Origin: Candidatus Liptonbacteria bacterium
GTDB taxonomy: Bacteria > Patescibacteriota > Minisyncoccia > UBA6257 > 2-01-FULL-56-20
Direction of reading: 5' to 3'
DNA length: 64,000 bases
NCBI GenBank assembly: GCA_023244895.1
Contig: JAHFLL010000001.1
Coordinates: 404,741-468,740 of the forward strand
The translations under genes were made by a program, and so were the position numbers. Numbering within the stretch: the stretch's first letter is position 1; each line of letters begins with the position of its first letter. The notes below the pieces were generated by a model, which saw nothing but the letters and a program-made list of their open reading frames with translations, had not been told where the DNA came from and searched no databases. Shown piece after piece: positions 37,465 through 61,336 of this stretch.

Positions 37465-38475
37465 TTATCTTGCTTTATGGGATAGCTCAAATAACTTGTC
37501 CTTTATGCTTTCAAACTGGGCTCTAGTAATTGGATATGGTGTACCCCCGCCATGATTGAAAGAGTTTGAAAATGGCTCGCTGAATTCTCCCTGTTTCCCA
37601 AATTTCAGCTCAATATCCTTCTTGGACTTTTTCTTTATCTCAAAATCAACAAAGTGAGGCCAGTGCCGGTTATTTATTTCCAGGGTCCTTCTCTGATCTT
37701 CAAAAAATGTCCCCCTGTGGTTGTCGAGCGCCATATAATACGGTTCGACAATACTGCAAATGTAGTATCTGTAAATAGTTATCTCCGTCTTAGGGTTTTT
37801 GGGCATAGCCATACTATTCCCGGCCTTACCGAATATAAAAAGTATCTTGTCGCCTTTCTGCATATCCAGAATATGCGGCAATGCTTTTGCATGCTGTCGG
37901 AATGCCCAGAACGGCTTAGAGGGCTTACTCTTGAGCATCCTATCAAAGTTCTTCACCGCAGGGCCATTGGCTCCTCCTTTTAAGAATACGACCCAATATT
38001 GACTCTTGCTTGAAAGATTCTTGCTCTCGGCCTGATAAATTAGAGACTCCCGCGAGAGCCGAGAAATATTTTCCGCGACCCAATCGGCAAAATCATCATG
38101 GTCAATGGCTACAACGTCTATCCCCTCATATGTCTTTAAATCAGTCTCCCCAAGGACAACAACAAAACCATCTTTTTCTTTTATATATCTTTTCTGATTG
38201 TCTTTCTTAAAATCGGTTAAATGCCATTTGACCTCTACCGGTATGCCGTTCTGCCGTTTTTTAAAAAAGATCTCCAGGTCGGCTCGATAACGAGCTTCTG
38301 TCTTGGACCCTTCGGGTACAATAAGATTTATCTGATCTTTTTGGAGTCTTTCCGGAAGCAATTTTCTCCTCTGGCCAGAATCACCAAAATAATATCTTTC
38401 GAAAAGATAACGGTGGATCAGCTTTTCGTTAAAGGCATTTCGGTTGATCTTTTTGAAGATATCCAGTCCGCTCAT
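37465..38475 (-). CDS. Putative type II restriction endonuclease (N-terminal PD-(D/E)xK: RADLEIF...PVEVKW)
   Basis: 336 aa, located immediately upstream of dcm on the same strand. It has a D-x12-EVK motif. This is an inference. Confidence 0.5.
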   Translation of the reverse strand: MSGLDIFKKINRNAFNEKLIHRYLFERYYFGDSGQRRKLLPERLQKDQINLIVPEGSKTEARYRADLEIFFKKRQNGIPVEVKWHLTDFKKDNQKRYIKEKDGFVVVLGETDLKTYEGIDVVAIDHDDFADWVAENISRLSRESLIYQAESKNLSSKSQYWVVFLKGGANGPAVKNFDRMLKSKPSKPFWAFRQHAKALPHILDMQKGDKILFIFGKAGNSMAMPKNPKTEITIYRYYICSIVEPYYMALDNHRGTFFEDQRRTLEINNRHWPHFVDFEIKKKSKKDIELKFGKQGEFSEPFSNSFNHGGGTPYPITRAQFESIKDKLFELSHKAR

Positions 38476-38610
38476 TAAAATCTCTTATGTTTTTTATGAC
38501 CTACCCCTTCTTCCAATCCCTGATGGTGAATCCGCCGGGGGGAAGTTTTGGGCTCTTATTTACCTTAAATAATATGCCCCTCTTTTGGCTTTAGCAAGAA
38601 TAAAATTCAA

Positions 38611-38694
38611 GGCAGTAAGTAGATAGTAGCAAGTAGTAGGTAGAAGGCGGAGTATATAAAAAAGAACCAGCCCCGGACGCGCGTCGCGCCGGGG
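38611..38694. repeat. Composite repeat copy 1: C-depleted GTAG/TAGAAG tract + 48-bp terminator module (GCGGAGTATATAA..CCCCGGACGCGCGTCGCGCCGGGG)
   Basis: 47 of 48 bp match 39974..40021. On the minus strand this is a hairpin plus T-run terminating the PNP gene. Confidence 0.55.
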
Positions 38695-38726
38695 CCGGAA
38701 TAGAATCCGTCTGACTTCTCCGCCAC

Positions 38727-39614
38727 TTACGCCGCTTCGCTCCGGCGGTAGAGCTCGAAGAACCTGAGGAAGATCTTGGCGACACGCCGGCGGACCGGCG
38801 GGCTCTTCAAGACCCTCACGACCTCCTCGTGATTGGTCGCGTTTGTGCCATCCTTCTTGGTTGTATTGGACACGATGGAAACGGCGAGCGTGCGCAGACC
38901 GCGATTGGTCGCGACGATCACTTCGGGCGCGGTAGACATGCCCATCGCGTCCCCGCCCAGAATCCGAATCGCACGGACCTCCGCGGGGGTCTCGTAGGTC
39001 CGTCCGGTCTGGACGAAGAGCACGCCCCTGTGGACACGCCGAGACTCTCGCACGATTGCGGCCGCGCGGTGGAACATACTGCGCAGCTTCAGGTCGTACG
39101 TGCCGACCTTGGGGTACATGGGCTGGAAGTACCAGTTGCTCCCAAAGTCCAAATGCGGTCCGAGAAGCGGGTTGGGCATCGCGAGAGCGATGTGGTCCGT
39201 GACCACCATCAGATCTCCGACCTTGTAGGACATGTTCGCCGCGCCGACTGCGTTGGTCGACATGTAGATCTGGACACCGAGCTCCGCCATCACCTGGACG
39301 GCGAGGGTAACCCACCACATCGCCCGCGGGTCGGGAGCGGCGTTGTAGTAGTGCTCCCGGCCGGACAAGGCGAAAACGGGCACGCCAGCGATGGTCCCGT
39401 AGATCAGCTCGCCCTTGTGCCCCGGAGCGCTCACGCCCGGGAAACCGGGAATCAGCCGATACGGGATCACAACCTCCTTCACCATCTGCTCGGCGAGGTC
39501 GTCCATCCCCGAGCCTAGCGTGAGCGAAATCTTGGGCATGGGGCCATTCACCCTGCTCCGGATGTAGGCTGCCGCCGCCCGAACCTTGGCCACGTAGACT
39601 TTCGGCGAGATCAT
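38727..39614 (-). CDS. Purine nucleoside phosphorylase (PunA/MTAP family), GC-rich foreign cassette
   Basis: 295 aa with GSGMDDLAE, SGREHYY and MGMSTAPEVIVA...NHEEV. A strong SD (GGGAGG) lies upstream. The gene is markedly GC-richer than the genome. Confidence 0.8.
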   Translation of the reverse strand: MISPKVYVAKVRAAAAYIRSRVNGPMPKISLTLGSGMDDLAEQMVKEVVIPYRLIPGFPGVSAPGHKGELIYGTIAGVPVFALSGREHYYNAAPDPRAMWWVTLAVQVMAELGVQIYMSTNAVGAANMSYKVGDLMVVTDHIALAMPNPLLGPHLDFGSNWYFQPMYPKVGTYDLKLRSMFHRAAAIVRESRRVHRGVLFVQTGRTYETPAEVRAIRILGGDAMGMSTAPEVIVATNRGLRTLAVSIVSNTTKKDGTNATNHEEVVRVLKSPPVRRRVAKIFLRFFELYRRSEAA

Positions 39615-39837
39615 CTCTCAGTCCCTCCCTGTTATGCCTCACGGAATAATATCAAAACCGTTTCGGATAGCTCCTCGCGGCTCATCACATCATTATGCAG
39701 TCAGGTATAAAAATCAATGTAGTAAGCGAAAGTAGAGGCTAGTAGCTAGAAGGTAGTAGGTAGCGAGCAAAATGAACCTAAACGGGAAAACACTGCTCAT
39801 CTCTCACTAACCCTATCTCCCCCAACTCACACCCCCG

Positions 39838-40021
39838 TGGTGGGTACTATACTACGGTATAGCGGAGGATAGTAGGTAGAATATATAAGGTAGAAGTTGG
39901 AAGATGGGAAGTGGTAGGTAAAAAGCGAGGGGTAGAAGTTAGAAGATAGAAGTTGGAAGGTAGAAAGTAGAATGCGGAGTATATAAGAAAGAACCAGCCC
40001 CGGACGCGCGTCGCGCCGGGG
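39838..40021. repeat. Composite repeat copy 2: 23-bp palindromic motif + C-depleted purine tract + 48-bp terminator module
   Basis: GGTACTATACTACGGTATAGCGG, then about 100 nt with almost no C (GGTAGAAGTTAGAAGATAGAAG...), then the terminator module for the lipoprotein gene. Confidence 0.55.
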
Positions 40022-40041
40022 CGGTCAATCTCATCATCCTA

Positions 40042-40746
40042 CTAGTCATAGAAGCGCGTCACCGGGGAGTAGTGCTCCCGGATGAAGGCGTTGAAGCAGG
40101 GACCTTCCTTCTGGCCACAGGCAAGCCAGCCTCTATACATAGTGGCACCGACCGGGTCCAGGTTGCGGCCCGCCCTCACTAGAGCAGAGACGGTATAGCG
40201 GCAGGTCCTGTCCCATGCGGTGACCTCGGAGGCGATCAGCGCCTCCTTACCGTCCACGTTGTCACAGCCACTCGCAAGATGCTCCAGCTCGTGGAGAAGA
40301 CCGATCACGATCGAGACTTCGAAGGTCTGCGGCGTGACCTTTCCGCTTCGATAGAACTGTAGCTGGGCCGGTACGAAGATCCGGAGCACGGGATTGCCAC
40401 CCCGAGCATCGCAACCGGCCAAGACGTCTCTGGAGCGGTTATTGAAGGACGTGCTGGCCTCGATGGCGAACACCTTGCCGTAGCGCTCAGCGCTCCGCCT
40501 GGAGAGCTCCAGATAACGGTTGTTGATGTCCGAAACCGAATACCTGGCCCGGAGCACCTCCTCCATCACGGTCCGGTTGAAGTGGGAGTCCCAGAACGCG
40601 TGGAGCTCCTCGTCCGAGAACTTGCGCTCCACCCTCTCCGCCACGGTGGGGGTGGGTTCATTCTTCTTGTCTATGGGGCAACCAAGAACCAGAAGAATGG
40701 TCGTCAGAAACAGGATGCGCGCCGTTCTTCCGCGTCGCATGGACAC
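40042..40746 (-). CDS. Lipoprotein with HExxH zinc-metallopeptidase motif, GC-rich cassette
   Basis: Signal peptide with lipobox LVLGC, HELEH motif, and an SD (AGGGGAGG) before a GTG/ATG start. Confidence 0.55.
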   Translation of the reverse strand: MSMRRGRTARILFLTTILLVLGCPIDKKNEPTPTVAERVERKFSDEELHAFWDSHFNRTVMEEVLRARYSVSDINNRYLELSRRSAERYGKVFAIEASTSFNNRSRDVLAGCDARGGNPVLRIFVPAQLQFYRSGKVTPQTFEVSIVIGLLHELEHLASGCDNVDGKEALIASEVTAWDRTCRYTVSALVRAGRNLDPVGATMYRGWLACGQKEGPCFNAFIREHYSPVTRFYD

Positions 40747-40895
40747 AGGTTGCCTCCCCTATTGTTTTGCCGTCATTGCGGCGATGGTAAACGAACCGAC
40801 CATATAATACAATTTTTCATGTAAAACACAAGATAACCCTCTTTCATTAATTATCTAGCCCCTCACGTCCCCAGCTTGACTAGGACATAGCACCA

Positions 40896-41064
40896 GGTAA
40901 CAAGTAGTGGCTAGTAATTAGTATTGAATAACGGTGAGTTAGAAGACGGTGGTTGGTAGTTAGAACGTGGAAAGTGGAACGTAGAACTACTGCCACTACT
41001 ACAATCATAATTCCGCTTACTCATCCATCAACCCCCACAGTGGGCACTATACTACGGTATAGTT
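40896..41064. repeat. Third copy of purine-rich tract + 23-bp palindromic motif (GTGGGCACTATACTACGGTATAG)
   Basis: Same orientation as the copy at 39842, and upstream of the plus-strand gene 41153. Confidence 0.45.
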
Positions 41065-41152
41065 ATCCACAGATAGGCATTGACGCACAGACTGGACGGC
41101 TATAGTTTTAAATCAGCCCCCGAAACGTTAACCTCTTTCAAGGAGCAGTGTC

Positions 41153-41392
41153 ATGGGTAGCAACAACACGCCACGGTACGAGGAAGACACTCGGCAGGTC
41201 TCCTCGGCCACCAGTGCGGCGGGCATGGCAGCGGCAGTCATGATTGCCGGGCCGTTCGCAGCGCTGTTCGTCGATCCGAACGACAAGTGGGAGCACACCA
41301 TCACCGATACCCAGACTGGTAACCAGGTTGTGGGTACCGGGAGCACCCCGCAAGAAGCTCGCGACGAAGCCCTGGGCAACATGCGTCGCTAA
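41153..41392 (+). CDS. Small hypothetical protein (79 aa), GC-rich
   Basis: AAGGAG sits 7 nt upstream of the ATG. No recognised family. Confidence 0.45.
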   Translation: MGSNNTPRYEEDTRQVSSATSAAGMAAAVMIAGPFAALFVDPNDKWEHTITDTQTGNQVVGTGSTPQEARDEALGNMRR

Positions 41393-41564
41393 TCGTTTAG
41401 CGAACATCCAGCCCGGATATAAAAAGAGGTACAGACACAAAAGTAAGGCAAGAAAGGGGCAAAATAGCCCGCCGCAATTAGCGGAAAATCCACAAGGCGC
41501 ATATTACGCGCGAGCCCCGGCTATTGCTAACGCACCCGGGGTTTTTGAATATTAAAATCAACAC

Positions 41565-41612
41565 AAAAAGCGAGACCCCGGACGCAGCACGATGCTGGCC
41601 GGGGCCCGAACT
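41565..41612 (-). terminator. GC hairpin terminator related to the CCCCGG..CCGGGG module
   Basis: Minus-strand GGGCCCCGGCCAGCA..TGCTGCGTCCGGGG followed by a T-rich run, located after the zinc-ribbon gene. Confidence 0.35.
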
Positions 41613-41631
41613 CTTCTCCACGCACAGAACG

Positions 41632-41895
41632 CTATTGCGGAGGCCAGATGGACTCGTCCTCGCAGACGGGACACTCGTAGCGATCTCCTCGCCTGGCCGA
41701 CTCTGGCAACTGCTTGTCGCAATTGGGGCAGACCGGTACCAAAACAGTGTCCTCGTTGGCGGGCAGTCGGCAACATTGCGGGCAGTAGCCCGCAACCTTG
41801 CCGTTTCGATCTTCTACCCTCTCCAGCAACCCTCCGCACGCCTTGTGCGCGGACCACCACTCTGTCGGCTTCAAGGCGATCGCCAGAACGCTCAT
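41632..41895 (-). CDS. Zinc-ribbon mini-protein (CPQCC...CPNC...CPVC)
   Basis: 87 aa with a strong SD (GGGAGGAG) and three CxxC pairs. Confidence 0.5.
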   Translation of the reverse strand: MSVLAIALKPTEWWSAHKACGGLLERVEDRNGKVAGYCPQCCRLPANEDTVLVPVCPNCDKQLPESARRGDRYECPVCEDESIWPPQ

Positions 41896-41908
41896 CCGAT
41901 TCTCCTCC

Positions 41909-42118
41909 CTAGCACCTGGTGCAGGATGTCACGGTGCAGTAGGTCTTGGATTCCGGTCCGCCGCTTCTGCGAGCGCTGTCGTTGCAGCCCTCGCAGACCA
42001 GGGCGTTTCCACCCCGGACCAGACCCGCGCCATTGCAGTGCGAGCACTTCTCGCCCTTCTTCCCGCCGCTCCCTCGGCAGAAGGAGCAATTCATGACCGG
42101 GACGTCTCCGAGCGCCAT
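41909..42118 (-). CDS. DnaJ-type zinc-finger mini-protein (CxxCxGxG repeats)
   Basis: Start taken at MALGDV with the SD GGGGGA. Motifs CSFCRGSGG, CSHCNGAG and CEGCN. Confidence 0.45.
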   Translation of the reverse strand: MALGDVPVMNCSFCRGSGGKKGEKCSHCNGAGLVRGGNALVCEGCNDSARRSGGPESKTYCTVTSCTRC

Positions 42119-42200
42119 GATGTCCCCCAATCCAGACACGGGATGTGTCTGCTGGAGATAGATTTTGATACAACCAGAAACAAAGTCAACGCCCAAGCGG

Positions 42201-43688
42201 TTAAAGCTCTCCCAAATCCAAGGTCTGGTCTATTCTTATTTTTTGCACAAAGTCCGGCACGTGGCTGACTAATATCATCGCGCCCTCGTAGCGATGTAAG
42301 GCTTCCGCTATAACCGGGATGTGGCGAAAGTTGATGTGATTAGTGGGTTCGTCCAAAATCAATAAACCCGGATGCTGTAAAGTAATTGCCGCAAAAGCAA
42401 CCAGGCCCTTTTGCCCTTCGGACAGAGCTCCTATCTTAGTTTTTAAAATATTGGCGTCCAATAAAAAGCCCGCCGCGTGAGAACGCAAAGACTCTATCGT
42501 CCCGCCCCGCACCACATCTTTTAGAGCGTCGTAAACGGTCTGCTCAAAATCCAGGGTGGAAAAATCCTGACGATAATACCCAACTCGAATCCCCTCCTGT
42601 ATATGCTCTCCCTTGGCGTGACCACTCGCGAGTTTTTCCAAGAGGGTTGTCTTGCCGATACCATTCGGTCCGGCAAGCAAGAGATGCTCTTTCTTTTTGA
42701 GGTCAATCTTAACTTTCTTTACGACCGGCTTGTGGTCTCTAATAACCGAGACCGAAGAAAGGCTCAAAATAACTCCGGTAATATCTTCCTGGCAGGGAAT
42801 GAAAAATTTACGAATAGTTTTATCTTCCTGACGTCCCTCCACCATATCGCCTTCCAGCTCCACTATTTTCTCATTCATCTTACGCGCCACGTCACGCATA
42901 TGCCCTCCCTTCTGAGCGAAAAAGTTGGCCTGCTCTTTACGGTGCGCGATATCTTTTTCCAGGCGCACATTTTTCATTCTTTCTCTCTCCAGGCGCGCCT
43001 TAATTTCTTCCACCACCGCCAGATAGTTGCCGGGGTACTGCTCCACCTTGCGGGTAAAGCTGTCCAAATAAAGCACTCCATGCGTAAAAGCATTCAAAAA
43101 ATCGGCGTCGTGCGAAATAACAATACAGGTTTTTTTATAATCAATTAGAAACTGGGTTAAGTGCGCGATGCCCTGCTTGTCCAAATTGTTGGTCGGCTCG
43201 TCGAGCAACAGAATATCCGAATCCTGAATCAACGCCTGGGCCAAGAGAATTCTGGCTTGCTGGCCTCCGGAAAAGGTCTTGAGCGCGCGCGTGAGCGGAG
43301 CGGAAAGATGCACCGCTTCCAAAACCTTTTTTACCCTGGGCTCAATATCATAAATCTTTTTAGGGAAGGCGCGCTCAAAAAATTCCAAAACGGAAAGTTC
43401 CAGTTCGCTCCGCGCGATAACCTGGCGGGCGGTCGCAATGCTTAAGCCCTTTTCCACTATCACGTCTCCCTCCTCCGGGGGAAGTTCTCCGGTGATAAGC
43501 TTAAAGATGGTGCTTTTGCCCGCACCATTCTGACCCATTAAAGTAACTTTCGCGCCACGACGCACGGAAAAGCTGGCGCCCGATAGGATTGGCTTTTGAT
43601 GTCCAAACTCAAAAACCACCTCATTGAAGCGAATAATCACCTCGCCGTGGACCGGCTTGGTCTCGATTGTAGCGGAAACTGGTTTCAT
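42201..43688 (-). CDS. ABC-F family ATPase (tandem ABC domains, EttA/Uup-like)
   Basis: 495 aa with two Walker A/signature/Walker B sets and no TM domain. Confidence 0.85.
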   Translation of the reverse strand: MKPVSATIETKPVHGEVIIRFNEVVFEFGHQKPILSGASFSVRRGAKVTLMGQNGAGKSTIFKLITGELPPEEGDVIVEKGLSIATARQVIARSELELSVLEFFERAFPKKIYDIEPRVKKVLEAVHLSAPLTRALKTFSGGQQARILLAQALIQDSDILLLDEPTNNLDKQGIAHLTQFLIDYKKTCIVISHDADFLNAFTHGVLYLDSFTRKVEQYPGNYLAVVEEIKARLERERMKNVRLEKDIAHRKEQANFFAQKGGHMRDVARKMNEKIVELEGDMVEGRQEDKTIRKFFIPCQEDITGVILSLSSVSVIRDHKPVVKKVKIDLKKKEHLLLAGPNGIGKTTLLEKLASGHAKGEHIQEGIRVGYYRQDFSTLDFEQTVYDALKDVVRGGTIESLRSHAAGFLLDANILKTKIGALSEGQKGLVAFAAITLQHPGLLILDEPTNHINFRHIPVIAEALHRYEGAMILVSHVPDFVQKIRIDQTLDLGEL

Positions 43689-43785
43689 AGAAAATTAAGA
43701 CCCCCAAAATTGGGGGCGAACCACCAAAAGACAGCCTGATTATATCAGATATGAGATAAAATGCCAATGCCCGAGGACCCTAGCC

Positions 43786-44121
43786 TTATTCCCCGGGACA
43801 CCTGGCAAACTCGCAATTCGGACCAGTTCTTGCAACAGAGGATCCATCCGCGCAAAGCTTGGCCTCTTGCGTGCAAATAGACGCTCCCCCGCCTACATTT
43901 AAGGGGCCCGGAGCTACCGCTCTGGGGCATTCGGCGAATTCACAGTTAGGACCGGTTCTGCCTACCGCCGAACCATCCGGACATATTTTTGCCTCTTGTG
44001 TACATCCACGCGTGTTCCCGCCATCCGCATAATCTGATTTTCTATACGAAAGAAACAGCGCCATAACGGCCAAGACGACCACCACCGCTCCAACCATCAA
44101 AATCGTAAATCTACTATTCAT
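43786..44121 (-). CDS. Membrane-anchored secreted protein with duplicated CTQEAKxCxDGSxVxRTGPNCEFAxCP module
   Basis: Start at MNSRF (TM anchor), with two near-identical Cys modules. Confidence 0.45.
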   Translation of the reverse strand: MNSRFTILMVGAVVVVLAVMALFLSYRKSDYADGGNTRGCTQEAKICPDGSAVGRTGPNCEFAECPRAVAPGPLNVGGGASICTQEAKLCADGSSVARTGPNCEFARCPGE

Positions 44122-52723: not shown

Positions 52724-53404
52724 CTAATTAGTTGAGTACAACGGCACCACTTCCAAGTCGCCCTTTTGGGGAGCGCGCACAATATCTATGACCTTGCCGA
52801 AAATTTGAAAGTTGCGATTTACGATTATCGGCTTATATTGCGGGTCGGAAGAAACCGGGTGCAAGATGATGGCGTTATTCGCGAACTGAATCTTCTTTAT
52901 AACCGCGAAACCGTCAATTATTGCCACCACTAAATCTTCCTCATAGATGGCCTGAGTCATCTCCACTAAGACATAGTCGTTCTCGTTTATGCCCGCGTCT
53001 TTCATAGAATCGCCCACCGCGCGAATACCAACCACATTATCTTTGCGCCGCCCTTGGAGCATTTCGCTCGCCACGCATAAAAACTCATCAAAAGAACTTT
53101 GCGCGAAGACGTTCACGTTATCGCAACCCGCGGAAGCGATAACCGGAATTTCTACTTCTTCCTTGGGCTTATCGTTTTCCAACTCCAGCACACGAATACC
53201 ACGCCGCTCGTAGCGGGAACGCTGGATTAGGCCCTTCTTTTCCAAAACCATTAGATATTGAGAAATACTGCGCGGAGAAGACAACTTCAAGGAACGCGCC
53301 ATTTCTTGAATGGTGGGCGCCTCGCCGTGCCTATCCGCATAGCTTTTTAGGACCTCGTAAAACTTTCTTTGTTTTTCCGTCAGCGTTGAGATTATTTTGT
53401 TCAT
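52724..53404 (-). CDS. lexA: LexA repressor
   Basis: 226 aa with an N-terminal wHTH, an S24 domain carrying GDSM (the Ser of the dyad) and the downstream Lys. Confidence 0.85.
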   Translation of the reverse strand: MNKIISTLTEKQRKFYEVLKSYADRHGEAPTIQEMARSLKLSSPRSISQYLMVLEKKGLIQRSRYERRGIRVLELENDKPKEEVEIPVIASAGCDNVNVFAQSSFDEFLCVASEMLQGRRKDNVVGIRAVGDSMKDAGINENDYVLVEMTQAIYEEDLVVAIIDGFAVIKKIQFANNAIILHPVSSDPQYKPIIVNRNFQIFGKVIDIVRAPQKGDLEVVPLYSTN

Positions 53405-53412
53405 GCTTAAAT

Positions 53413-53425
53413 TGTATTACATACA
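53413..53425. promoter_or_regulatory. Candidate SOS box palindrome TGTAT-TAC-ATACA upstream of lexA
   Basis: Read directly from the sequence. A second ATACATTA half-site-like element lies about 20 nt away. Confidence 0.3.
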
Positions 53426-53526
53426 TTACTCTCGTCAATATATACATTATATATATTACCCGGGCCAAAAAGCCCGTATTTCCTAGCTTATTTCTCCCCT
53501 CCTAAAAGTTATCCACAGCCTTAGAG

Positions 53527-53967
53527 CTACTGAATCTTATTGTCTTCCAAATATTTTATCGCTACCTCGGCACCCTCTATGGAAATTATTTTGTGCTTGT
53601 ACCCGAAAAATTCGGTTATGGATTTCCGAACTTCGTCCGGCAATTCCACACAGCTCTTTCTCGGATCACCAACATCAACCACTATCATCTTATCGTCTCC
53701 ATCCTCCCGACGTAGTAAGCCTATCGGCTCAACCACAACCTCTCCCCCTACGGAATATTTCTTATTAGATATTAACAAAACATCTACCTCATCTTTATCA
53801 TTAGCGTTAAATGTATTCGGTACGTAGCCATAATCGACTGGCATAATGCCATTATTCACCTGTATGACGTCTTTGATCGGACCGATATCCACAAAACCGG
53901 ATTTATCATAACCAAGATGACGCCTGCGATCGTCTCCCTTCGGCATTTCTATAATTACCTTAAACAT
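53527..53967 (-). CDS. Inorganic pyrophosphatase (family I)-like
   Basis: Motifs PVDYGYVP and DKDEVDVLLIS resemble NYGFIPQT and DGDPLDVLV. Start at MFKVII. Confidence 0.55.
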   Translation of the reverse strand: MFKVIIEMPKGDDRRRHLGYDKSGFVDIGPIKDVIQVNNGIMPVDYGYVPNTFNANDKDEVDVLLISNKKYSVGGEVVVEPIGLLRREDGDDKMIVVDVGDPRKSCVELPDEVRKSITEFFGYKHKIISIEGAEVAIKYLEDNKIQ

Positions 53968-53974
53968 GACCAGA

Positions 53975-54565
53975 CTAGTCAGTCTTTTCTCTTTTGACCA
54001 ACCCCTCAAAAGTGATGCGAATATAATCTCCCACCGTCACACCTTTCATCTTGTATATCTGATTGGTGGAAAAAATTCTTTTATCTTCCGGATTAAGACC
54101 GAGCCAGACGATTGCCTCATCAATTTTCTGCCAACTATCTGATTCAATCTCCAAATACGGCTCAAGTTCCGGATAGATGTCTATATCAAACTCCACGCCC
54201 TCCTTAGTCCAGCGGGTGCGTTTATTTTCCACATAATGCTTTTCAATAAATCCGATGCTTAAGAGCAGTTGGGCGGTCTTCTCAAAATCGTTCACGATTA
54301 TTTCCGTCTCCTCCATGCCGTCGTCATTGCCGGTACCGTCATGTTTCTCCGCGCCAAGCCGTTTTTTGAAACTTAGAGTAATTTTTTCGCCCTCATCCCG
54401 CAGACGCAACCAGGAGTGGGCTTTGTCTAGGCGCCAATCCGGATAGTCAAAAACTCGCCGGCGGTAAAAAAAATCGCCCACTTTCTCCGCGCCAACCTCC
54501 AGAAGCTTGGCCTCCAAGCTCGCGAGATTTACATTTAAGAATTTAACCTCTATTTCTTCAGCCAT
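53975..54565 (-). CDS. CYTH-domain (triphosphate tunnel metalloenzyme) protein
   Basis: N-terminal EIEVKF acidic motif. Start at MAEEIEVKF. Confidence 0.6.
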   Translation of the reverse strand: MAEEIEVKFLNVNLASLEAKLLEVGAEKVGDFFYRRRVFDYPDWRLDKAHSWLRLRDEGEKITLSFKKRLGAEKHDGTGNDDGMEETEIIVNDFEKTAQLLLSIGFIEKHYVENKRTRWTKEGVEFDIDIYPELEPYLEIESDSWQKIDEAIVWLGLNPEDKRIFSTNQIYKMKGVTVGDYIRITFEGLVKREKTD

Positions 54566-54858
54566 ATGGATGAGCCAATTATAAATCCAATTCACAAAAA
54601 ATATCCACAGACCGGGAAGTTTGACAGCTTTCTAAAACGGGCAGAATATTAACCTCGCACATTAGAAATATTTTAGGAATCTGGGGAAGCGGGTGTAAAT
54701 CCCGCACAGTGCCGCTACGGTGATCTCGATAATCTTATCGGGAAAGTCCGACTACCAGTCCTAGAACCTTTTGTGTTCCTCGAGCAAGGAACAAACTGAT
54801 TTTGTCCAATCAGGATCCCCTTGCTCTAGCGGGATTTTTTAGTTCCGCGCAGAACAAA

Positions 54859-56679
54859 ATGTTTAAAAAAATAATCGGCGTGCTTGCGGGCGGAGTAGTC
54901 GTGGCAGTCTTGGCAATTCCCTCTCTCTCGCGGGGAGATATAAATAAATCGGTCGCATATCTGGAGTCAAAATCTCTTAGCGCCTGGAGTGTTATGGCCT
55001 TAGTCTCGGCGGGCAAGAACCCAAGCACGGATTCCTTGAAGAGCATAAGCGCAACCCAAGCCATAGACTTGGAGGCACCGATACTCGCTCTCACCGCGGC
55101 AGGCAAAGATCCACGCAGCTTCTCCACCGAGAATCTGGTTACTAAATTAAAAAATTATTACGACGGGACCCAATTAGGCAGTGCATCTATTCTAAACGAC
55201 GACATATTTGGACTTCTGGCCCTCAAAAGCTCCGGCGAGAGCGATTCGGATACTACCGTTTCCGGAACCAAGGCCCTTATACTTTCCAAACAGAATTCGG
55301 ATGGCGGATGGAGCTACGCGATTGGCGGAGCGAGCGATACGAATACGACCGCGGCGGGCATTATGGCGCTTATTTCCGCCGGGCAGAACAAAGAGAGCGC
55401 TCCAATTACAAATGGTCTTAATTATCTTAAATCCGCCCAAAATATAGATGGTGGCTTCCCTTATGACCCTAAAAGCGCTTGGGGCACGGATTCGGATGCC
55501 TCTTCGGATGCCTGGGTCATAATGGCTTTACGTTCGGTGGGCATAGATCCCGCAACCATAACCAAGGACGGTAAGTCCGCCCTTACGCATCTCGCGACCC
55601 TTTCCACAGAAGAAGGATATTATCGCTATCAAGCCGGCAGTTCGGAAGATTCTTTTAGTCCAACCACTACTTCTTACGCGGTTATCGCTCTCTCCGGCAA
55701 ATATCTCCCAGTCGGAACAATCGCTCCCCCGCCCGCAAGCAAAGCTGGATTCAGCTATCGCATTGAAGGCGCAAGTGGCCAGCTTTGCGCCGGAGAGGCA
55801 GATGGATTAACCGCGCTTGACGCGGTCGTTATCGCGAGCGAGGCCTGCAACATTACCTACCATATGACTCAGATGAGCTTCGGGGATTACGTGGATGCCA
55901 TCGGCGGAGAAACCGCTTTCGGCACAAATGGCTGGATGTATCTGGTAGACAATCAAAAGCCAAGCGTGGGCGCGGGAGATTACAAGCTATCCGCGAACGA
56001 TGAGGTGCTCTGGTACTACGGAGACTATGCCTGGCAACCGCTTCGCCTATCGCTTAATTCCACCAGCACCACCGGCTCAACCCTAACCGGCAAGTTGGAA
56101 TACTTTGATGGCACAAATTGGAAATACTCCGAGGGTGCGACCATAAAAGCGAATGATAAGACTGCTACGACCGGAATAGATGGAACATTTTCTCTAACTC
56201 TATCTAATGGAGCTTACAAAGTGTTTGGCGAGAAGAATGGCTTTATCCACAGCAATCGTTCCAATTTTAACGTCGGCACCGCCAGCCAGAGCTCTTTGGA
56301 TCTAACTGTAGATCTGGGTTCTGGAGGTAATAGCAGTTCCAACCCCGACCCGACTCAGGAAATATCTTTTTCCGTCCAGACCGAAAATTCTCTTAAAAAA
56401 TTTAATTTCGGTAAGAAAAGTAACGGAGCCCTTCCTGTCCAGAAAGCGACTCTGACCAATTTAAGCGCGAGCCCAACTCACTTTGAGAGCAGTGTCTCGG
56501 GCGATGAGGTCTTCCGAAATTATTTGAATCTAGACGGCAAAACGTGGCGGATGTTCGGAGTAAATCTCGCGCCGGGCGGGGCCAAACAAACCGAGATATC
56601 TCTCAAGCTTCCTTCCGGGCATACCGGTACGGGCGTACGCAATGGGTCGCTAATATTCTGGGCCACACCCGCTCTCTAA
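54859..56679 (+). CDS. Secreted protein with prenyltransferase/terpene-cyclase-like alpha/alpha-toroid repeats and C-terminal beta-sandwich
   Basis: Signal peptide, then repeated GGW...A.G..AL units and a C-terminal domain (GIDGTFSLTLSNGAYKV) resembling the carboxypeptidase regulatory domain. Confidence 0.5.
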   Translation: MFKKIIGVLAGGVVVAVLAIPSLSRGDINKSVAYLESKSLSAWSVMALVSAGKNPSTDSLKSISATQAIDLEAPILALTAAGKDPRSFSTENLVTKLKNYYDGTQLGSASILNDDIFGLLALKSSGESDSDTTVSGTKALILSKQNSDGGWSYAIGGASDTNTTAAGIMALISAGQNKESAPITNGLNYLKSAQNIDGGFPYDPKSAWGTDSDASSDAWVIMALRSVGIDPATITKDGKSALTHLATLSTEEGYYRYQAGSSEDSFSPTTTSYAVIALSGKYLPVGTIAPPPASKAGFSYRIEGASGQLCAGEADGLTALDAVVIASEACNITYHMTQMSFGDYVDAIGGETAFGTNGWMYLVDNQKPSVGAGDYKLSANDEVLWYYGDYAWQPLRLSLNSTSTTGSTLTGKLEYFDGTNWKYSEGATIKANDKTATTGIDGTFSLTLSNGAYKVFGEKNGFIHSNRSNFNVGTASQSSLDLTVDLGSGGNSSSNPDPTQEISFSVQTENSLKKFNFGKKSNGALPVQKATLTNLSASPTHFESSVSGDEVFRNYLNLDGKTWRMFGVNLAPGGAKQTEISLKLPSGHTGTGVRNGSLIFWATPAL

Positions 56680-56680
56680 G

Positions 56681-57208
56681 ATGAAAAAAATAATTATTTT
56701 GACGGCGGCGTCGTTCTTGGTCATACTCGGCTTCCAAACTTCAAGAGCGAATGCAATAGGTATATCAGTCCGTCCGTCCGAGCTCCGCATCCAGGCCCAA
56801 ACCGGAGAGACGGCAAGCGCGCGGATAAAAGTAAAAAATCCCTCCGAGGAGGTGGCGCTTTTTGAGGTTTATCCGGAGGAATTTGAAAATAAGATAAGCG
56901 CCTCCCCTGCCAAGTTCACTTTGGAAAGCGGAGAGGAAAAAGATGTGGTTATAAAATTCAAACCCAGTGAGGATGGAATTTTTAGTACATCTCTTGCGGT
57001 GGTGGCTCGTCCACTAGACAATCCGGGGGGTATCGGGAGCGGGGCCAAAATAGCGTTCCAGGCCGAAAACAAGCCTCGCTCAATTGGCTTGGCGCTCATA
57101 TCGGATATTTTTTCCGGCCGAAGGGCGGCTGTCGCAATCATAATATTGGCCGCCCTGGCCACTCTAATGCTAATACTTAGAAAAAGAATTGCTCAAAAAC
57201 AAAACTAG
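56681..57208 (+). CDS. Secreted hypothetical protein with C-terminal TM anchor
   Basis: 175 aa with a signal peptide, a beta-rich middle, and a C-terminal TM plus basic tail. Confidence 0.4.
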   Translation: MKKIIILTAASFLVILGFQTSRANAIGISVRPSELRIQAQTGETASARIKVKNPSEEVALFEVYPEEFENKISASPAKFTLESGEEKDVVIKFKPSEDGIFSTSLAVVARPLDNPGGIGSGAKIAFQAENKPRSIGLALISDIFSGRRAAVAIIILAALATLMLILRKRIAQKQN

Positions 57209-57600
57209 ACCTTGCGACGGTGCTCCTTTTTGATGCGCCAGTATTCCGAATCCCCGCCTGCCCCAGGTTCCTTGCCTCGGCTTTTCTTCATTAGTTTGGC
57301 GGGATATTTTTGGGCAATATGCGCCAATTTTTCGCGGATTATTTTTTCGGTGTCTAATCCCAAAAGAACGGATAAGTCCAACGCATAAATCAAAACATCC
57401 GCCAGCTCCTTTTTGATATGCTCCAATTTCTCCTTATCTTTCTTTATTTCTTCCAACGGCAAATTTTCCCACTGAAAAAGCTCTAGAAGCTCCGCGCCCT
57501 CTATCATAACCGACTTGGCCAGATCCGCCGGACGCAATTTATGCCAACCACGCTCTTTAAGATATTTATATATGTCTTTTTCCAGCTCCCTCATAATCAA
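57205..57600 (-). CDS. MazG-like nucleotide pyrophosphohydrolase
   Basis: Motifs EGAELLE and ELADVLIYALDLS. Confidence 0.7.
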   Translation of the reverse strand: MIMRELEKDIYKYLKERGWHKLRPADLAKSVMIEGAELLELFQWENLPLEEIKKDKEKLEHIKKELADVLIYALDLSVLLGLDTEKIIREKLAHIAQKYPAKLMKKSRGKEPGAGGDSEYWRIKKEHRRKV

Positions 57601-57809
57601 TCTCCGATGTATTTGAATCTGGGACCTTTGTAGCCGTCCCGCTCTATTTCTTCTGTAAACATGATGGCCGGTCTAACCCACAACTGCTCCTCTCCGCAGA
57701 CGTGGTATATAACCATCTCTTCCATGGTCTCGCTATGTTTTGCGAAACCGACAACCTCGTAGTCTTTGCCCTTAAAGTGCCTATATTTGCCCAACTTAAT
57801 TTCACTCAT
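57597..57809 (-). CDS. DUF1653-family small protein
   Basis: 70 aa with the YRHFKGKDY pattern. Confidence 0.6.
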   Translation of the reverse strand: MSEIKLGKYRHFKGKDYEVVGFAKHSETMEEMVIYHVCGEEQLWVRPAIMFTEEIERDGYKGPRFKYIGD

Positions 57810-58171
57810 CTCACTATTATATGTTTAAAATACTTTTCCTGAAAATGAACTTTCTCCTCTATCTCCACATCAGTTAAAGTTTTCCCCTTAGACACAACCA
57901 CTAGCTTGTCGTCGTCATCTTCCAGGCGATGGATTATTGCGATAACCACACCGCTCACCTTATCCAGAGGTTCGCTTGAGCTAAGATGGTATGCGTCCAG
58001 CTCCTTCCCATCCGGAGCTATAATCCCGGGAATGTAGCCTGCATTAATTTCGTATATCTCATCCGGATATTTGGGATGCCGGCTGCCCAATGGCCGGTCA
58101 ATCACCATCTCCACCTCTTTACCAAGAAATGGCTCTGCTAGCCTAAACGAAATTGATTTATCCTTGTCCAT
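57806..58171 (-). CDS. Divergent inorganic-pyrophosphatase-like protein
   Basis: DRPLGSRHPKY...NAGYIPGIIAPDGKELDAYHL parallels family I PPase motifs. Confidence 0.5.
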   Translation of the reverse strand: MDKDKSISFRLAEPFLGKEVEMVIDRPLGSRHPKYPDEIYEINAGYIPGIIAPDGKELDAYHLSSSEPLDKVSGVVIAIIHRLEDDDDKLVVVSKGKTLTDVEIEEKVHFQEKYFKHIIVR

Positions 58172-58697
58172 GCTCTTTTTTATACAACATTGTGTCGTAT
58201 CCTTCAAAAACTCTATCTTCCGGTTTCACGCCGAGGCTGACTAGAAAATCCATCAGCTCGGCTTGCACTTTCTTGCCATCCTCCTCGCTCATTTTTTCTA
58301 CTTCAATGAAAGAACCCAAACCCTCCACCTCGTCCAGACAGATTTCTAACTCTTCCACTTTGCCCTTACGCCTGTTCTTGTTTACGAAAACAGTATGGGT
58401 AAATCCTAATAGTTCCAACATCTTACGAGCTCCTACCGAATCGCTCACCTCCACTTCTTGCTCAAAACAATCCAATTCTCCGCTGCGGTCTTTTTTGGCG
58501 GTTAGTAAATATCTACCACCACTACTACGTATGCGCATAACCGTGCTGTCGCCTAAATTGCTTGGGGTGGCCCCGGGGATATTAAATATCTCGTCTTCCT
58601 GGCGGACGGGGTCGGAAAGTTTACAACCCAAACTCCCCAGTTTTTCTATTATGGTTTTTGCATCCGATATTTTTGCCTTAACTTCTATTTCAAACAC
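58158..58697 (-). CDS. CYTH-domain protein (second copy)
   Basis: N-terminal EIEVKAKI and C-terminal FIEVEKM motifs. Confidence 0.6.
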   Translation of the reverse strand: MFEIEVKAKISDAKTIIEKLGSLGCKLSDPVRQEDEIFNIPGATPSNLGDSTVMRIRSSGGRYLLTAKKDRSGELDCFEQEVEVSDSVGARKMLELLGFTHTVFVNKNRRKGKVEELEICLDEVEGLGSFIEVEKMSEEDGKKVQAELMDFLVSLGVKPEDRVFEGYDTMLYKKEHGQG

Positions 58698-58780: not shown

Positions 58781-61336
58781 TTATGAACCGTGACATTTCT
58801 TATATTTCTTCCCGCTTCCACAGGGGCAGGGGTCGTTGCGACCAGCCTCCTTACCATCCGCGCCGCGCATACCCTTGTTGGATATGTGGATTACCTGAGT
58901 TTCCTTGCTGGTATTACTTTCGCTTTTCTCGGGCTTAAATATATTACCCAATACCCAGGAATTGAAGTTATCCCAAAAAGTGGCATATAGACGATGCGCC
59001 TCCTGGCGATATTCTACCAGAGGGTCTTTCTGGCCATAGGCGCGCAAACCGACCGACTCGCTTAACGCCTCCAAATCTTCCAGATTATTCATCCAAAGCA
59101 TATCTAAAATGCTCAAAAGCTTGGCATAAGCATTCGGCTGCAAAGCCACCTCCACGCTTCGTTTAGTAATAATCTCGCGCAGCTTCGTCAAATCCATACC
59201 AGGCCAGGGATGATCCTTATCCACAATGCCCGATTCCTCACAGGCCTGCTTGAGCGAAGCCTCTCCTTCCGGCTCCTGCTCCATCCCTATAAATGTTTTT
59301 TCCATCCCGGCGGCAGCAGCATCAAAGATCAACTGGGGCAGAATAGCCTTGCCCTGGCTCTCTAATATCTCCTGGCGCCTCTTATAGACCGCGGAGCGTT
59401 GCTTGTTTAAAACGTCATCGTATTCCAATAGATGTTTGCGCATATCAAAGTTCGCGCCCTCCACCTTACTTTGGGCTTGCGCAACTGCTTTAGAAATAAA
59501 TCCGACCTGAATCGGCTCATCTTCCGGTAAATCAAAACGCTCAATCATGCTCCTGATACGGTCGCCTCCGAAGATTCGCAAGAGATCGTCGTCCAAAGCC
59601 AAATAGAATTGAGAAGAACCACGGTCGCCCTGCCGGCCTGCGCGCCCGCGCAGCTGATTATCTATGCGCCTGGCTTCATGACGCTCCGTACCTATTACAT
59701 GTAGACCTCCCAGCTCTTTTACCTTCTCTGCCTCCTCTTTGGTGGGCGGATTGCCACCCAGGATTATGTCCACACCACGGCCAGCCATGTTGGTCGCAAC
59801 TGTTACCCCCTTCAACCTGCCTGCCTGCGCGATAATGGAGCCTTCTCGTTCGTTATTCTTGGCGTTTAAAACTTCATGCGGGATACCGTCCTGGCTTAAA
59901 AGCGCGGAAAGGTGCTCGTTCTTTTCAATAGAAGTAGTTCCCAAAAGCACCGGCTGGCCTTTTTCATAACAGGTTCGCACATCCCGTACCACTGCCCGCC
60001 ATTTTGCCTCTTGGTCTTTGTAAATTACATCCGACCGGTCTTCTCTCGCCAAAGGCCGATTAGATGGAATAGAGAAAACGTCCAGATTGTATACCTTGTA
60101 GAATTCTTCCGCGGAAGTTTGCGCCGTGCCGGTCATGCCGGAAATGTGTTTATACATACGGAAGTAGTTCTGAATAGAAATCTTGGCATAAGTCTTGGAT
60201 TCTTCTTTTACCAACACGCCTTCCTTGGCCTCAATAGCCTGATGCAAGCCGCCGTTATAACGCCGACCCTGAAGCATGCGCCCGGTAAACTCATCTACAA
60301 TTATTATCTGTCCATCTTTCACCACGTAATCCTTGTCTTTGCGATAAAGCGCGTGCGCGCGTAAGCTCTCTTCCAAGTAATGCACTAGGCGTAAACTTTC
60401 AGGCGCGTAAAGGTTCGGGACGCCCAAGGCTTTTTCCATTTTCTCTATGCCCGCCGATATGATGCTGACCGAACGCTTCTTCTCGTCCACGGTGTAGTCG
60501 TTGTCCACCTCCAGATTCTTTACCAAGCGAGCGAAAACTTTATAGTACTCGCTGGACTGTGCATCCGGCGCGGAAATAATAAGCGGAGTGCGGGCCTCAT
60601 CTATCAAAATACTATCCACCTCGTCTATCACCGCGAAAAAGGGCTTGCGCTGAGCCTGTTCTAGGGGATTATAGGTCAGGTTGTCGCGCAGATAGTCAAA
60701 ACCGAACTCATGATTGGTACCGTAAGTTATGTCCGCGAGATATGCCTCCCGGCGAGTAATTGGCCTTAGGAAATCCTGTTGGATTAAAAAACTGCCGGTT
60801 GTGTCTTCTTTTTCGTCCAAAGCCTTAACCTGAGCCGCCGGAACCTTCCATTCCGGATCATATAGATATGCCGCGTTCGGCACCAAGCAACTTACCGAGA
60901 GACCCAGCGCGCGATAAATCTGCCCCATCCAAACCGCGTCGCGACGGGCGAGGTATTCGTTTACGGTTACCACGTGTGAACCCCTACCCTCCAGGGCGCG
61001 CGCGTAAACCGGAGCAACCGCGGCCAACGTCTTTCCTTCTCCCGTCATCATCTCCGCCACTCCCCCGCGATAAAGAACTACGCCACCCATCAACTGCACA
61101 TCATATGGCCGTTGATGCAGGGTACGTCGAGCCGCTTCCCGCGCGAGCGCAAAAGCATATTTAAAATCCGGCTCTGCGTCTTTGCTGAAAGATTCTTTTA
61201 GCTCCAAGCTTTTTTCTTTAAGTTCCGCGTCGCTCAACTTTTCCACCTCCGGTTCTAATTTATTTATCTCGGAAACCAAATTACGCAGTTCATCCAACTG
61301 CTTCCCACCGAAAAAGTTTTTAAGCGCGCCGAACAT
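58781..61336 (-). CDS. secA: Preprotein translocase ATPase SecA
   Basis: 851 aa with DEAD-like motor motifs and a C-terminal zinc tail CPCGSGKKYKKCHG. Confidence 0.9.
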   Translation of the reverse strand: MFGALKNFFGGKQLDELRNLVSEINKLEPEVEKLSDAELKEKSLELKESFSKDAEPDFKYAFALAREAARRTLHQRPYDVQLMGGVVLYRGGVAEMMTGEGKTLAAVAPVYARALEGRGSHVVTVNEYLARRDAVWMGQIYRALGLSVSCLVPNAAYLYDPEWKVPAAQVKALDEKEDTTGSFLIQQDFLRPITRREAYLADITYGTNHEFGFDYLRDNLTYNPLEQAQRKPFFAVIDEVDSILIDEARTPLIISAPDAQSSEYYKVFARLVKNLEVDNDYTVDEKKRSVSIISAGIEKMEKALGVPNLYAPESLRLVHYLEESLRAHALYRKDKDYVVKDGQIIIVDEFTGRMLQGRRYNGGLHQAIEAKEGVLVKEESKTYAKISIQNYFRMYKHISGMTGTAQTSAEEFYKVYNLDVFSIPSNRPLAREDRSDVIYKDQEAKWRAVVRDVRTCYEKGQPVLLGTTSIEKNEHLSALLSQDGIPHEVLNAKNNEREGSIIAQAGRLKGVTVATNMAGRGVDIILGGNPPTKEEAEKVKELGGLHVIGTERHEARRIDNQLRGRAGRQGDRGSSQFYLALDDDLLRIFGGDRIRSMIERFDLPEDEPIQVGFISKAVAQAQSKVEGANFDMRKHLLEYDDVLNKQRSAVYKRRQEILESQGKAILPQLIFDAAAAGMEKTFIGMEQEPEGEASLKQACEESGIVDKDHPWPGMDLTKLREIITKRSVEVALQPNAYAKLLSILDMLWMNNLEDLEALSESVGLRAYGQKDPLVEYRQEAHRLYATFWDNFNSWVLGNIFKPEKSESNTSKETQVIHISNKGMRGADGKEAGRNDPCPCGSGKKYKKCHGS

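Follow-up and report, generated by a model that had tools for sequence, protein, structure and literature searches.

Two CYTH and pyrophosphatase gene pairs in a Candidatus Liptonbacteria genome: probable independent operons of phosphoanhydride hydrolases

Why does a genome of Candidatus Liptonbacteria carry, only 3.8 kb apart, two gene pairs that each set a CYTH (triphosphate tunnel) gene directly upstream of a gene for a family I pyrophosphatase (PPase) or a protein resembling one? We address this question in a stretch of 64,000 nucleotides, here called the window (GenBank assembly GCA_023244895.1, contig JAHFLL010000001.1, positions 404,741 to 468,740 of the forward strand). An initial annotation of this sequence read the pairs as a paralogous, duplicated two-gene module that suggested a dedicated pathway for the hydrolysis of tri/polyphosphate or nucleoside triphosphates (NTPs). 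Our best explanation, to which we give a probability of about 0.6 as a whole, is that two small operons, independent of each other, encode housekeeping phosphoanhydride hydrolases in this reduced Patescibacteria-type genome; in both, the CYTH protein is a predicted triphosphate tunnel metalloenzyme (TTM) that would make pyrophosphate (PPi) and the downstream PPase would remove it. The genes concerned are the following.

53527-53967, minus strand: PPase1, 146 aa, PF00719 59.3 bits, 7 nt downstream of the end of CYTH1
53975-54565, minus strand: CYTH1, 196 aa, PF01928 60.3 bits, first gene of operon 1
57205-57600, minus strand: MazG-like gene, PF12643 37.8 bits, last gene of operon 2
57597-57809, minus strand: DUF1653 gene, 70 aa, PF07866 89.3 bits
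57806-58171, minus strand: mini-PPase, the PPase-like gene, 121 aa, PF00719 17.6 bits, under the cut-off
58158-58697, minus strand: CYTH2, 179 aa, PF01928 74.0 bits, first gene after secA in operon 2
58781-61336, minus strand: secA, context gene upstream of CYTH2

The coordinates first assigned to the four CYTH and PPase reading frames hold, all of them on the minus strand, and CYTH1, CYTH2 and PPase1 pass the Pfam gathering cut-offs (in bits, 23.2 for PF01928, 23.5 for PF00719, 27 for PF12643 and 23.5 for PF07866); the MazG-like and DUF1653 genes likewise exist as described. The start codons used here match the N-termini of homologues in our alignments. An overlap of CYTH and PPase genes, which had been claimed for both pairs, is found in pair 2, where it measures 14 nt (ATG at 58171, TAA at 58158-58160); in pair 1 the initial annotation's own coordinates leave a gap of 7 nt (53967 vs 53975). 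The mini-PPase and DUF1653 genes overlap by 4 nt (ATGA, at the mini-PPase stop), as do the DUF1653 and MazG-like genes. These last two genes do lie between the pairs, as had been stated, but through the 4-nt overlaps they are predicted to be translationally coupled to pair 2, and a plus-strand unit at 54802-57208 with its own B12 riboswitch divides operon 2 from pair 1. The stop of secA and the start of CYTH2 are 83 nt apart. We read this layout as two independent small operons, CYTH1-PPase1 and (secA-)CYTH2-mini-PPase-DUF1653-MazG-like, a proposal that shares the joint probability given above.

Is one pair a copy of the other? Identity is 25% between CYTH1 and CYTH2 and 30% over 90 residues between PPase1 and mini-PPase. 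Each of the four genes has closer relatives in other genomes, nearly all of them metagenome-assembled genomes of Patescibacteria, the candidate phyla radiation (CPR), for example Andersenbacteria and Paceibacterota. We find more than 2568 clusters of homologues for mini-PPase (the best 120 at 55-80% identity), 134 homologues for CYTH2, 40 for PPase1, and 2028 representatives for CYTH1, 24 of them with E <= 1e-30. Given this degree of divergence, and given that every one of the four is more closely related to genes of other genomes, we reject a recent duplication of a two-gene module, and the description of the pairs as such has to be given up; these comparisons place CYTH1, CYTH2, PPase1 and mini-PPase in four distinct subfamilies and not in two copies of one pair.

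We then ask what the CYTH proteins do. CYTH1 carries the motifs ExExK (E4-I-E6-V-K8), xRxR (W52-L-R54-L-R56) and ExE (E139-I-E141), and CYTH2 carries the same three as E3-I-E5-V-K7, V53-M-R55-I-R57 and E132-V-E134. In both family alignments ExExK, RxR and ExE are invariant or nearly so, R55-I-R57 and E132-V-E134 being invariant throughout the CYTH2 family. Both family profiles find their best solved structure in SaTTM (7NS8), with 77.3 bits vs 55.2 bits for the class IV adenylate cyclase YpAC-IV in the case of CYTH2, and 71.3 bits vs 23.7 bits for YpAC-IV (3N0Y) in the case of CYTH1. SaTTM converts inorganic triphosphate (PPPi) and tetraphosphate (P4) into PPi and phosphate (Pi), makes no cyclic nucleotide, turns ATP and GTP into the nucleoside diphosphates about 19-fold more slowly, and is subject to product inhibition by PPi (PMC8233210).

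The names attached to these proteins in databases point elsewhere. CYTH2 scores 82.9 bits against TIGR00318, the model for class IV adenylate cyclase (cut-off 57.95), CYTH1 scores 37.1 bits, and many CYTH2 homologues are named "class IV adenylate cyclase" by NCBI and JGI. The signatures of class IV adenylate cyclases (AC-IV) are an HF four residues before ExExK (HFxxxxExExK), a small residue for the first Arg of xRxR, and ExA for ExE (PMC8233210). We looked for all three in CYTH1 and CYTH2 and found none. The N-termini read M-A-E-E-I-E-V-K in CYTH1 and M-F-E-I-E-V-K in CYTH2, and the GTG start of CYTH2 is directly preceded by an in-frame TAA; with two residues before ExExK and that stop upstream, CYTH2 has no room for an N-terminal extension or an HF motif. 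Where the CYTH2 family has E-x-E, the aligned YpAC-IV has E-I-A. Because the cyclase signatures are absent and the profile lies closer to SaTTM, we take the TIGR00318 hit and the cyclase name of CYTH2 to be over-annotation; evidently the TIGR00318 model also captures SaTTM-like triphosphatases. Both proteins are thus predicted to be SaTTM-like triphosphatases of the TTM type and not cyclases, which forms part of the explanation weighted above.

One residue sets the two CYTH proteins apart. W52 of CYTH1 lies two positions before RxR, where 25 of 26 aligned relatives carry an aromatic residue and CYTH2 has V53. W52 aligns with A54 of SaTTM, a position that corresponds by structural mapping to W53 of the mouse thiamine triphosphatase (ThTPase), and an aromatic W/Y-x-R-x-R motif is treated as defining ThTPases (PMC8233210). 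The CYTH1 profile matches ThTPase marginally (E about 0.009). CYTH1 may stack an organic group or prefer an organic triphosphate, the motif by itself not establishing the substrate.

Turning to the downstream partners, PPase1 matches PPases of the Protein Data Bank (PDB) at E-values down to 6.8e-9. In an alignment of the E. coli PPase (sequence identical to 1FAJ/1INO) with 16 homologues, PPase1 keeps equivalents of E. coli E20, Y55, D65, D67, D70, D97, D102 and K104, the last six forming its signature D-K-D-E-V-D plus D...D-D-K; within its family the D65 equivalent is D or E. It is without E31 and has V at the position of R43; a family-specific DDRRRH motif replaces the K29/E31 segment, and 8 residues are deleted behind the FF motif of the FFxxY region. 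On these residues PPase1 reads as a family I PPase that is shortened yet complete in essentials.

The mini-PPase required a structure model for its placement, because its 17.6 bits against PF00719 fall below 23.5; about half of its homologues carry a precomputed PF00719 hit. That it is divergent, with the stretches DRPLGSRHPKY and DGKELDAYHL, was recognized from the start and is borne out. Its AF2 model has a pLDDT (predicted local distance difference test) of 95, and in Foldseek each of its top 50 PDB hits is a family I PPase, at probability 1.00, a best E of 3.8e-6 and template modelling (TM) scores of 0.56-0.66, normalised to the query. An hhalign comparison of the mini-PPase family with PPase1 and the E. 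coli PPase gives a probability of 96.4%, the last about 24 residues lying outside the alignment. The model thus assigns mini-PPase the family I PPase (OB-like beta-barrel) fold.

The profile-profile alignment equates D25, R31, H32 and P33 of mini-PPase with E. coli E20, K29, Y30 and E31; N43, A44 and G45 with N54, Y55 and G56; D54, K56 and D59 with D65, D67 and D70; and D85, D87 and K89 with D97, D102 and K104. The resulting signature is D54-G-K56-E57-L-D59 and D85-D86-D87-D88-K89. A census of 121 family members shows no exception at R26, H32, Y40, N43, D54, R82, D86, D87, D88, K89 or F110. Conservation is almost as strict at D59 and H81 (120 members each), at Q111 and E112 (119 each) and at D25 (118, with E in the remaining three), while D85 alternates with N. 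Hence the metal-binding acids, whose absence the initial annotation had raised as a possibility, are for the most part present (D54, D59 and D87), with K at the D67 equivalent and A at the Y55 equivalent. As a family, mini-PPase looks like an active metal-dependent phosphohydrolase.

Putting the two kinds of protein together, we arrive at the following scheme. CYTH1 and CYTH2 would release PPi and Pi by acting on inorganic tri- or tetraphosphate and, with lower efficiency, on the gamma-phosphate of NTPs. The PPase-fold enzyme encoded downstream would hydrolyse PPi, the known inhibitor of SaTTM, so that PPPi or NTP would be converted to PPi and on to 2 Pi with product inhibition prevented. MazG-like NTP pyrophosphohydrolases are a PPi-producing family, and in operon 2 the mini-PPase would also clear the PPi from this second source. 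Observed here are the family memberships, the motifs, the fold, the layout of the operons and the pattern of conservation; which substrates are used, whether the two steps are coupled and whether the divergent mini-PPase copy is catalytically active are matters of inference. Published work supports a link between the two enzyme classes: in E. coli PPPi is hydrolysed chiefly by family I PPase itself (PMC3440374), and a TTM and a family I PPase are described as successive steps of Sulfolobus polyphosphate breakdown, where the genes are unlinked (PMC12995831). Of the pathway first suggested for this locus, the hydrolysis of tri/polyphosphate or NTPs remains sensible, both CYTH proteins having TTM motifs and a PPase being a sensible second step, and the duplicated module falls away.

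How widely is the pairing kept? Our search for broad conservation covered 80 mini-PPase genome loci, 80 CYTH2-type metagenome loci and the contigs of PPase1 homologues (loci bear L numbers and proteins P numbers below). Both window pairings are kept in close relatives only (about 67-92% identity), plus a few scattered cases. In L103, with a CYTH2 85% identical, mini-PPase adjoins the CYTH2-type gene. In L172 and L173 (about 67% identical) CYTH2, mini-PPase, DUF1653 and MazG-like are kept in order, and beyond an equivalent B12-related unit CYTH1 is followed by NUDIX and His_Phos_1 instead of PPase1; the fuller order is secA...NUDIX, NTPase_I-T, CutA1, CYTH2, mini-PPase, DUF1653, MazG-like, B12 unit, CYTH1, NUDIX, His_Phos_1. 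L170 and L171, with a PPase1 74% identical, have the order CYTH1, NUDIX, PPase1, and L048 has mini-PPase, NUDIX, CYTH1. Since PPase1 is replaced or preceded by NUDIX, or by NUDIX and His_Phos_1, the slot behind CYTH1 is variable even among close relatives, and NUDIX is a steadier partner of CYTH1 than PPase1 is (L170-L173, L048). The two remaining combinations occur as well, a CYTH2-type with a PPase1-type gene in L107 and mini-PPase with a CYTH1-type gene in L048, L065 and L018. All four CYTH-by-PPase combinations are therefore found somewhere, which hints at an association that is recurrent but weak.

In relatives the neighbourhood is dominated by small nucleotide and phosphoanhydride hydrolases, and both operons would belong to a fluid island of NUDIX, NTPase_I-T, His_Phos_1, MazG-like, DUF1653, CYTH and PPase genes whose order is reshuffled between related genomes. 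Four more distant PPase1-type loci, one of them known by its gene list, have SecA, NUDIX, MazG-like and DUF1653 as neighbours and no CYTH. In two of the more distant loci the PPase1-type gene lies downstream of secA. One of these is L169 (MurB, HPF, SecA, PPase1-type ... MazG-like, DUF1653), and because its order mirrors that of the window around operon 2 (MurB, EamA, HPF, SecA, CYTH2, mini-PPase, DUF1653, MazG-like), both PPase types hold equivalent positions downstream of secA, a conserved upstream neighbour of PPase-family genes in Patescibacteria. The adjacency of DUF1653 and MazG-like is kept in L169, L172 and L173. Separately, CYTH1-type and CYTH2-type genes stand in tandem or 0.6-2 kb apart in L115, L142, L148, L154, L157 and L159 (a second CYTH is near the CYTH2-type gene in 8 of 75 CYTH2-type loci), and a nucleoside diphosphate kinase gene appeared near CYTH2-type genes in 7 loci in our initial neighbour clustering.

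A number of results weigh against the reading of two PPi-making and PPi-removing operons, and those that bear on the coupling come from a neighbour census. Using iterated family hidden Markov models, we compared genes within 2.5 kb of an anchor gene with those lying 4 kb or more from it in the same loci, counting 77 mini-PPase loci from different genomes and 75 CYTH2-type loci. A CYTH gene lies within 2.5 kb of mini-PPase in 3/77 loci (p=0.087 against the far-gene control), and a PPase-family gene lies near the CYTH2-type gene in 2/75. The significant neighbours of mini-PPase are instead NUDIX (19/77 loci, odds ratio 6.3, p=2e-5) and SecA (17/77, odds ratio 22, p=9e-6); NUDIX is also near the CYTH2-type gene in 8/75. 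Whether the pairs are conserved together, as the initial annotation would lead one to expect, thus has a divided answer: they are in L103 and L170-L173 and rarely so in the wider families, which leads us to reject a broadly conserved CYTH-PPase module. Promoter and terminator scans also gave counts not above those of shuffled sequence, including promoter-like sites upstream of CYTH1 at 54699-54670 and 54607-54578, so that the operon boundaries are drawn from gene spacing. Because adjacency is rare outside close relatives and its enrichment is non-significant, the coupling may be incidental: small housekeeping genes would be packed and shuffled in a compact genome, with CYTH and PPase working independently of each other. 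The occupation of the slot after CYTH1 by NUDIX and His_Phos_1 in relatives suits this idea too. It is harder to square with two such pairs in one genome, in overlapping or near-abutting frames, with the recurrence of all four combinations in other lineages, and with surroundings made up of phosphoanhydride and nucleotide hydrolases, some members of which are tied together by CYTH+DUF1653 fusions. We consider adjacency without functional meaning somewhat unlikely, and it keeps substantial weight as the main rival, since across the wider families the census shows no significant enrichment of the pairing.

The remaining adverse results concern catalysis by the mini-PPase. Residues K29, R43, Y55, Y141 and K142 of the E. 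coli PPase are those that bind phosphate. Throughout the mini-PPase family the R43 hairpin is deleted and E31 is gone, and at 121 aa the protein is too short to have the second C-terminal helix of canonical PPases; in the window copy the replacements read E31->P33, Y55->A44, E20->D25 and K29->R31. Position 56, the D67 equivalent, is E in 102/121 members and K in 13/121, the window copy having K56, and position 44 is Y in 114/121, the window copy having A44 in place of the Y55 equivalent. A literature search on what D67 does in the E. coli PPase yielded nothing that could be quoted. K56 is combined with A/S44 in the window copy and its nearest relatives P0002 and P0003, and in P0004, a syntenic relative, G stands at the D70 equivalent. 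The CYTH2-linked copies are the most deviant members of the family, and catalysis may be weakened in exactly this clade. One could therefore suppose that in this lineage the mini-PPase has lost its pyrophosphatase function and either serves CYTH2 as an accessory subunit that binds PPi or metal, or acts on another phosphoester or phosphoanhydride substrate, an idea to which its translational coupling to CYTH2 and the more complete PPase1 encoded 3.8 kb away would be congenial. Yet D25, D54, D59, D85-D88 and K89 are retained, most of them invariant in the 121 members, and K56 looks like a tolerated variant because it recurs in several lineages, usually followed by E57. We regard such a loss of function as rather unlikely. 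Far less credible is a class IV (CyaB-type) adenylate cyclase activity of CYTH2, and perhaps also of CYTH1, with the PPase pulling cyclic AMP (cAMP) synthesis forward by removing PPi. The cyclase reaction does release PPi, so a PPase partner would fit, and CYTH2 passes TIGR00318 under the name its homologues bear; but CYTH1 falls under that cut-off, and the three motif tests together with the ranking of PDB profiles lead us to reject the cyclase. Weighing these rivals, we retain the two operons of TTM and PPase as the most probable account.

The wider distribution of the mini-PPase family suggests a broader reading. Barring assembly or frame errors, uninterrupted reading frames indicate that mini-PPase occurs as a C-terminal fusion to the following domains.

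L035, 9497-10351: NUDIX
L084, 9467-10351: shikimate-kinase-like P-loop kinase
L032, 9440-10330: GrpB
L078, 9428-10354: LigT 2H phosphoesterase
L027, 507-1409: peptidase S51

For DUF1653, P0286 (262 aa) and P0297 (273 aa) join a CYTH1-type protein to a C-terminal DUF1653, both Pfam hits being above the cut-offs, and DUF1653 adjoins CYTH2-type genes in L116 and L117. A literature search on DUF1653 returned nothing useful, there being essentially no literature on it, and these fusions are the first functional lead for this domain. It is possible, though we put it forward only tentatively, that the mini-PPase clade (more than 2500 clusters, mostly Patescibacteria, also large genomes labelled Trueperaceae or Poribacteria) is a portable remover of PPi and short polyphosphate, recruited by fusion or adjacency to NUDIX, P-loop kinase, GrpB, 2H phosphoesterase, TTM and MazG-like proteins, that DUF1653 is a dedicated partner of CYTH, and that together they would make up an island, so far unrecognised, that rids ultra-small, nucleotide-scavenging bacteria of phosphoanhydrides and aberrant nucleotides. 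Our literature search turned up nothing on PPases or Nudix in CPR.

Mini-PPase homologues 55-59% identical occur in large genomes not labelled CPR: L021 (OZ243956.1, a 4.5-Mb chromosome, Trueperaceae), L045 (OY762266.1, a 6.3-Mb chromosome labelled Poribacteria) and L082. Given these, the family may not be confined to reduced genomes, and in large ones it presumably coexists with a canonical PPase. Several Gammaproteobacteria-labelled bins among the homologues look like taxonomic mislabels of CPR bins.

Between the two pairs, filling most of the spacer upstream of CYTH1, lies the plus-strand unit mentioned above.

54658-54801, plus strand: adenosylcobalamin (AdoCbl, B12) riboswitch RF01482, 51.2 bits (gathering score 50)
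54802-56679, plus strand: gene directly after the riboswitch, 625 aa, DUF4430 plus alpha/alpha-toroid (SQHop_cyclase/prenyltransferase-like)
56681-57208, plus strand: Ig-like membrane protein

DUF4430 with an alpha/alpha-toroid is a transcobalamin/intrinsic-factor-like architecture, and the riboswitch with the genes at 54802-57208 looks like a riboswitch-controlled B12-capture unit. An AdoCbl riboswitch of 64.3 bits stands at the equivalent place upstream of a DUF4430 gene in L172 (6899-7033, minus strand) and L173 (6823-6957, minus strand).

After PPase1 comes a LexA-like repressor gene (Peptidase_S24 plus LexA DNA-binding domain; 52724-53404, minus strand), whose place behind the CYTH1 operon shows synteny with L172. 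It has a promoter-like site of its own (TTGACG, 16 nt, TACAAT) at 53438-53411, just upstream of which, in the upstream region 53405-53526, is the AT-rich near-palindrome TATATATAATGTATATAT, which could be an operator. Elsewhere in the window, G+C rises to 0.52-0.57 at 38001-44000, against about 0.47 in the rest; that segment gave no match to rRNA, tRNA or other Rfam families. A defence or signalling system was considered for the CYTH-PPase locus and rejected, PADLOC models giving no match at E <= 0.01 to any of six proteins (both CYTH, both PPases, DUF1653 and the MazG-like protein).

It is important to keep these results in proportion. The finding is real and largely ordinary biology, and nothing here overturns current understanding; its interest lies in the minimal PPase clade, in the mis-named CYTH proteins and in the link between CYTH and DUF1653. 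It is easy to see how annotation could mislead here, since CPR proteins of the CYTH type are labelled "class IV adenylate cyclase" with none of the cyclase signatures, and cAMP signalling deduced from the label would be wrong. The mini-PPase family represents an extreme trimming of the family I PPase fold in which the metal-binding Asp cluster is still strongly conserved. The physical pairing of TTM and PPase genes fits the reported product inhibition of TTMs by PPi.

Among characterised systems, the closest to both CYTH proteins is the archaeal SaTTM (Saci_0718; 7NS8), the top solved-structure match of both family profiles, which shares with them a single CYTH domain, a similar size, and the motifs ExExK, xRxR and ExE. 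It differs in its low identity (a single-sequence search with CYTH1 reaches it only at E 9e-4), in having A54 where CYTH1 has W, and in its gene context: Saci_0718 and the Sulfolobus PPase Saci_0955 have distant locus numbers, whereas the window CYTH genes adjoin PPase-fold genes. SaTTM is also characterised biochemically, and the CPR proteins are known here from sequence. CyaB (YpAC-IV, 3N0Y/2FJT) belongs to the same CYTH superfamily; CYTH2 scores above the TIGR00318 cut-off, and its homologues bear the cyclase name in databases. CYTH2 differs from CyaB in having no HF, in keeping the first Arg of xRxR and in having ExE and not ExA. With the mammalian 25-kDa ThTPase (3BHD/3TVL), CYTH1 and nearly all of its family share the aromatic residue two before RxR, but the profile match is marginal and CYTH1 is overall nearer to SaTTM.

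On the PPase side, the reference is family I PPase as represented by E. coli Ppa (1INO) and the S. acidocaldarius enzyme (1QEZ). PPase1 resembles these as a member of the same Pfam family with the metal-binding Asp set, and differs in its length of 146 aa, its 8-residue deletion and its DDRRRH motif for the K29/E31 segment. The mini-PPase has the same predicted fold and keeps equivalents of E. coli N54, D65, D70, D102 and K104; in its 121 aa there is neither R43 hairpin nor E31 nor C-terminal helix, some 15 residues are missing at the N-terminus, and it adds a conserved set that is specific to its own family, namely R26, H32, H81, R82 and F110-Q-E112.

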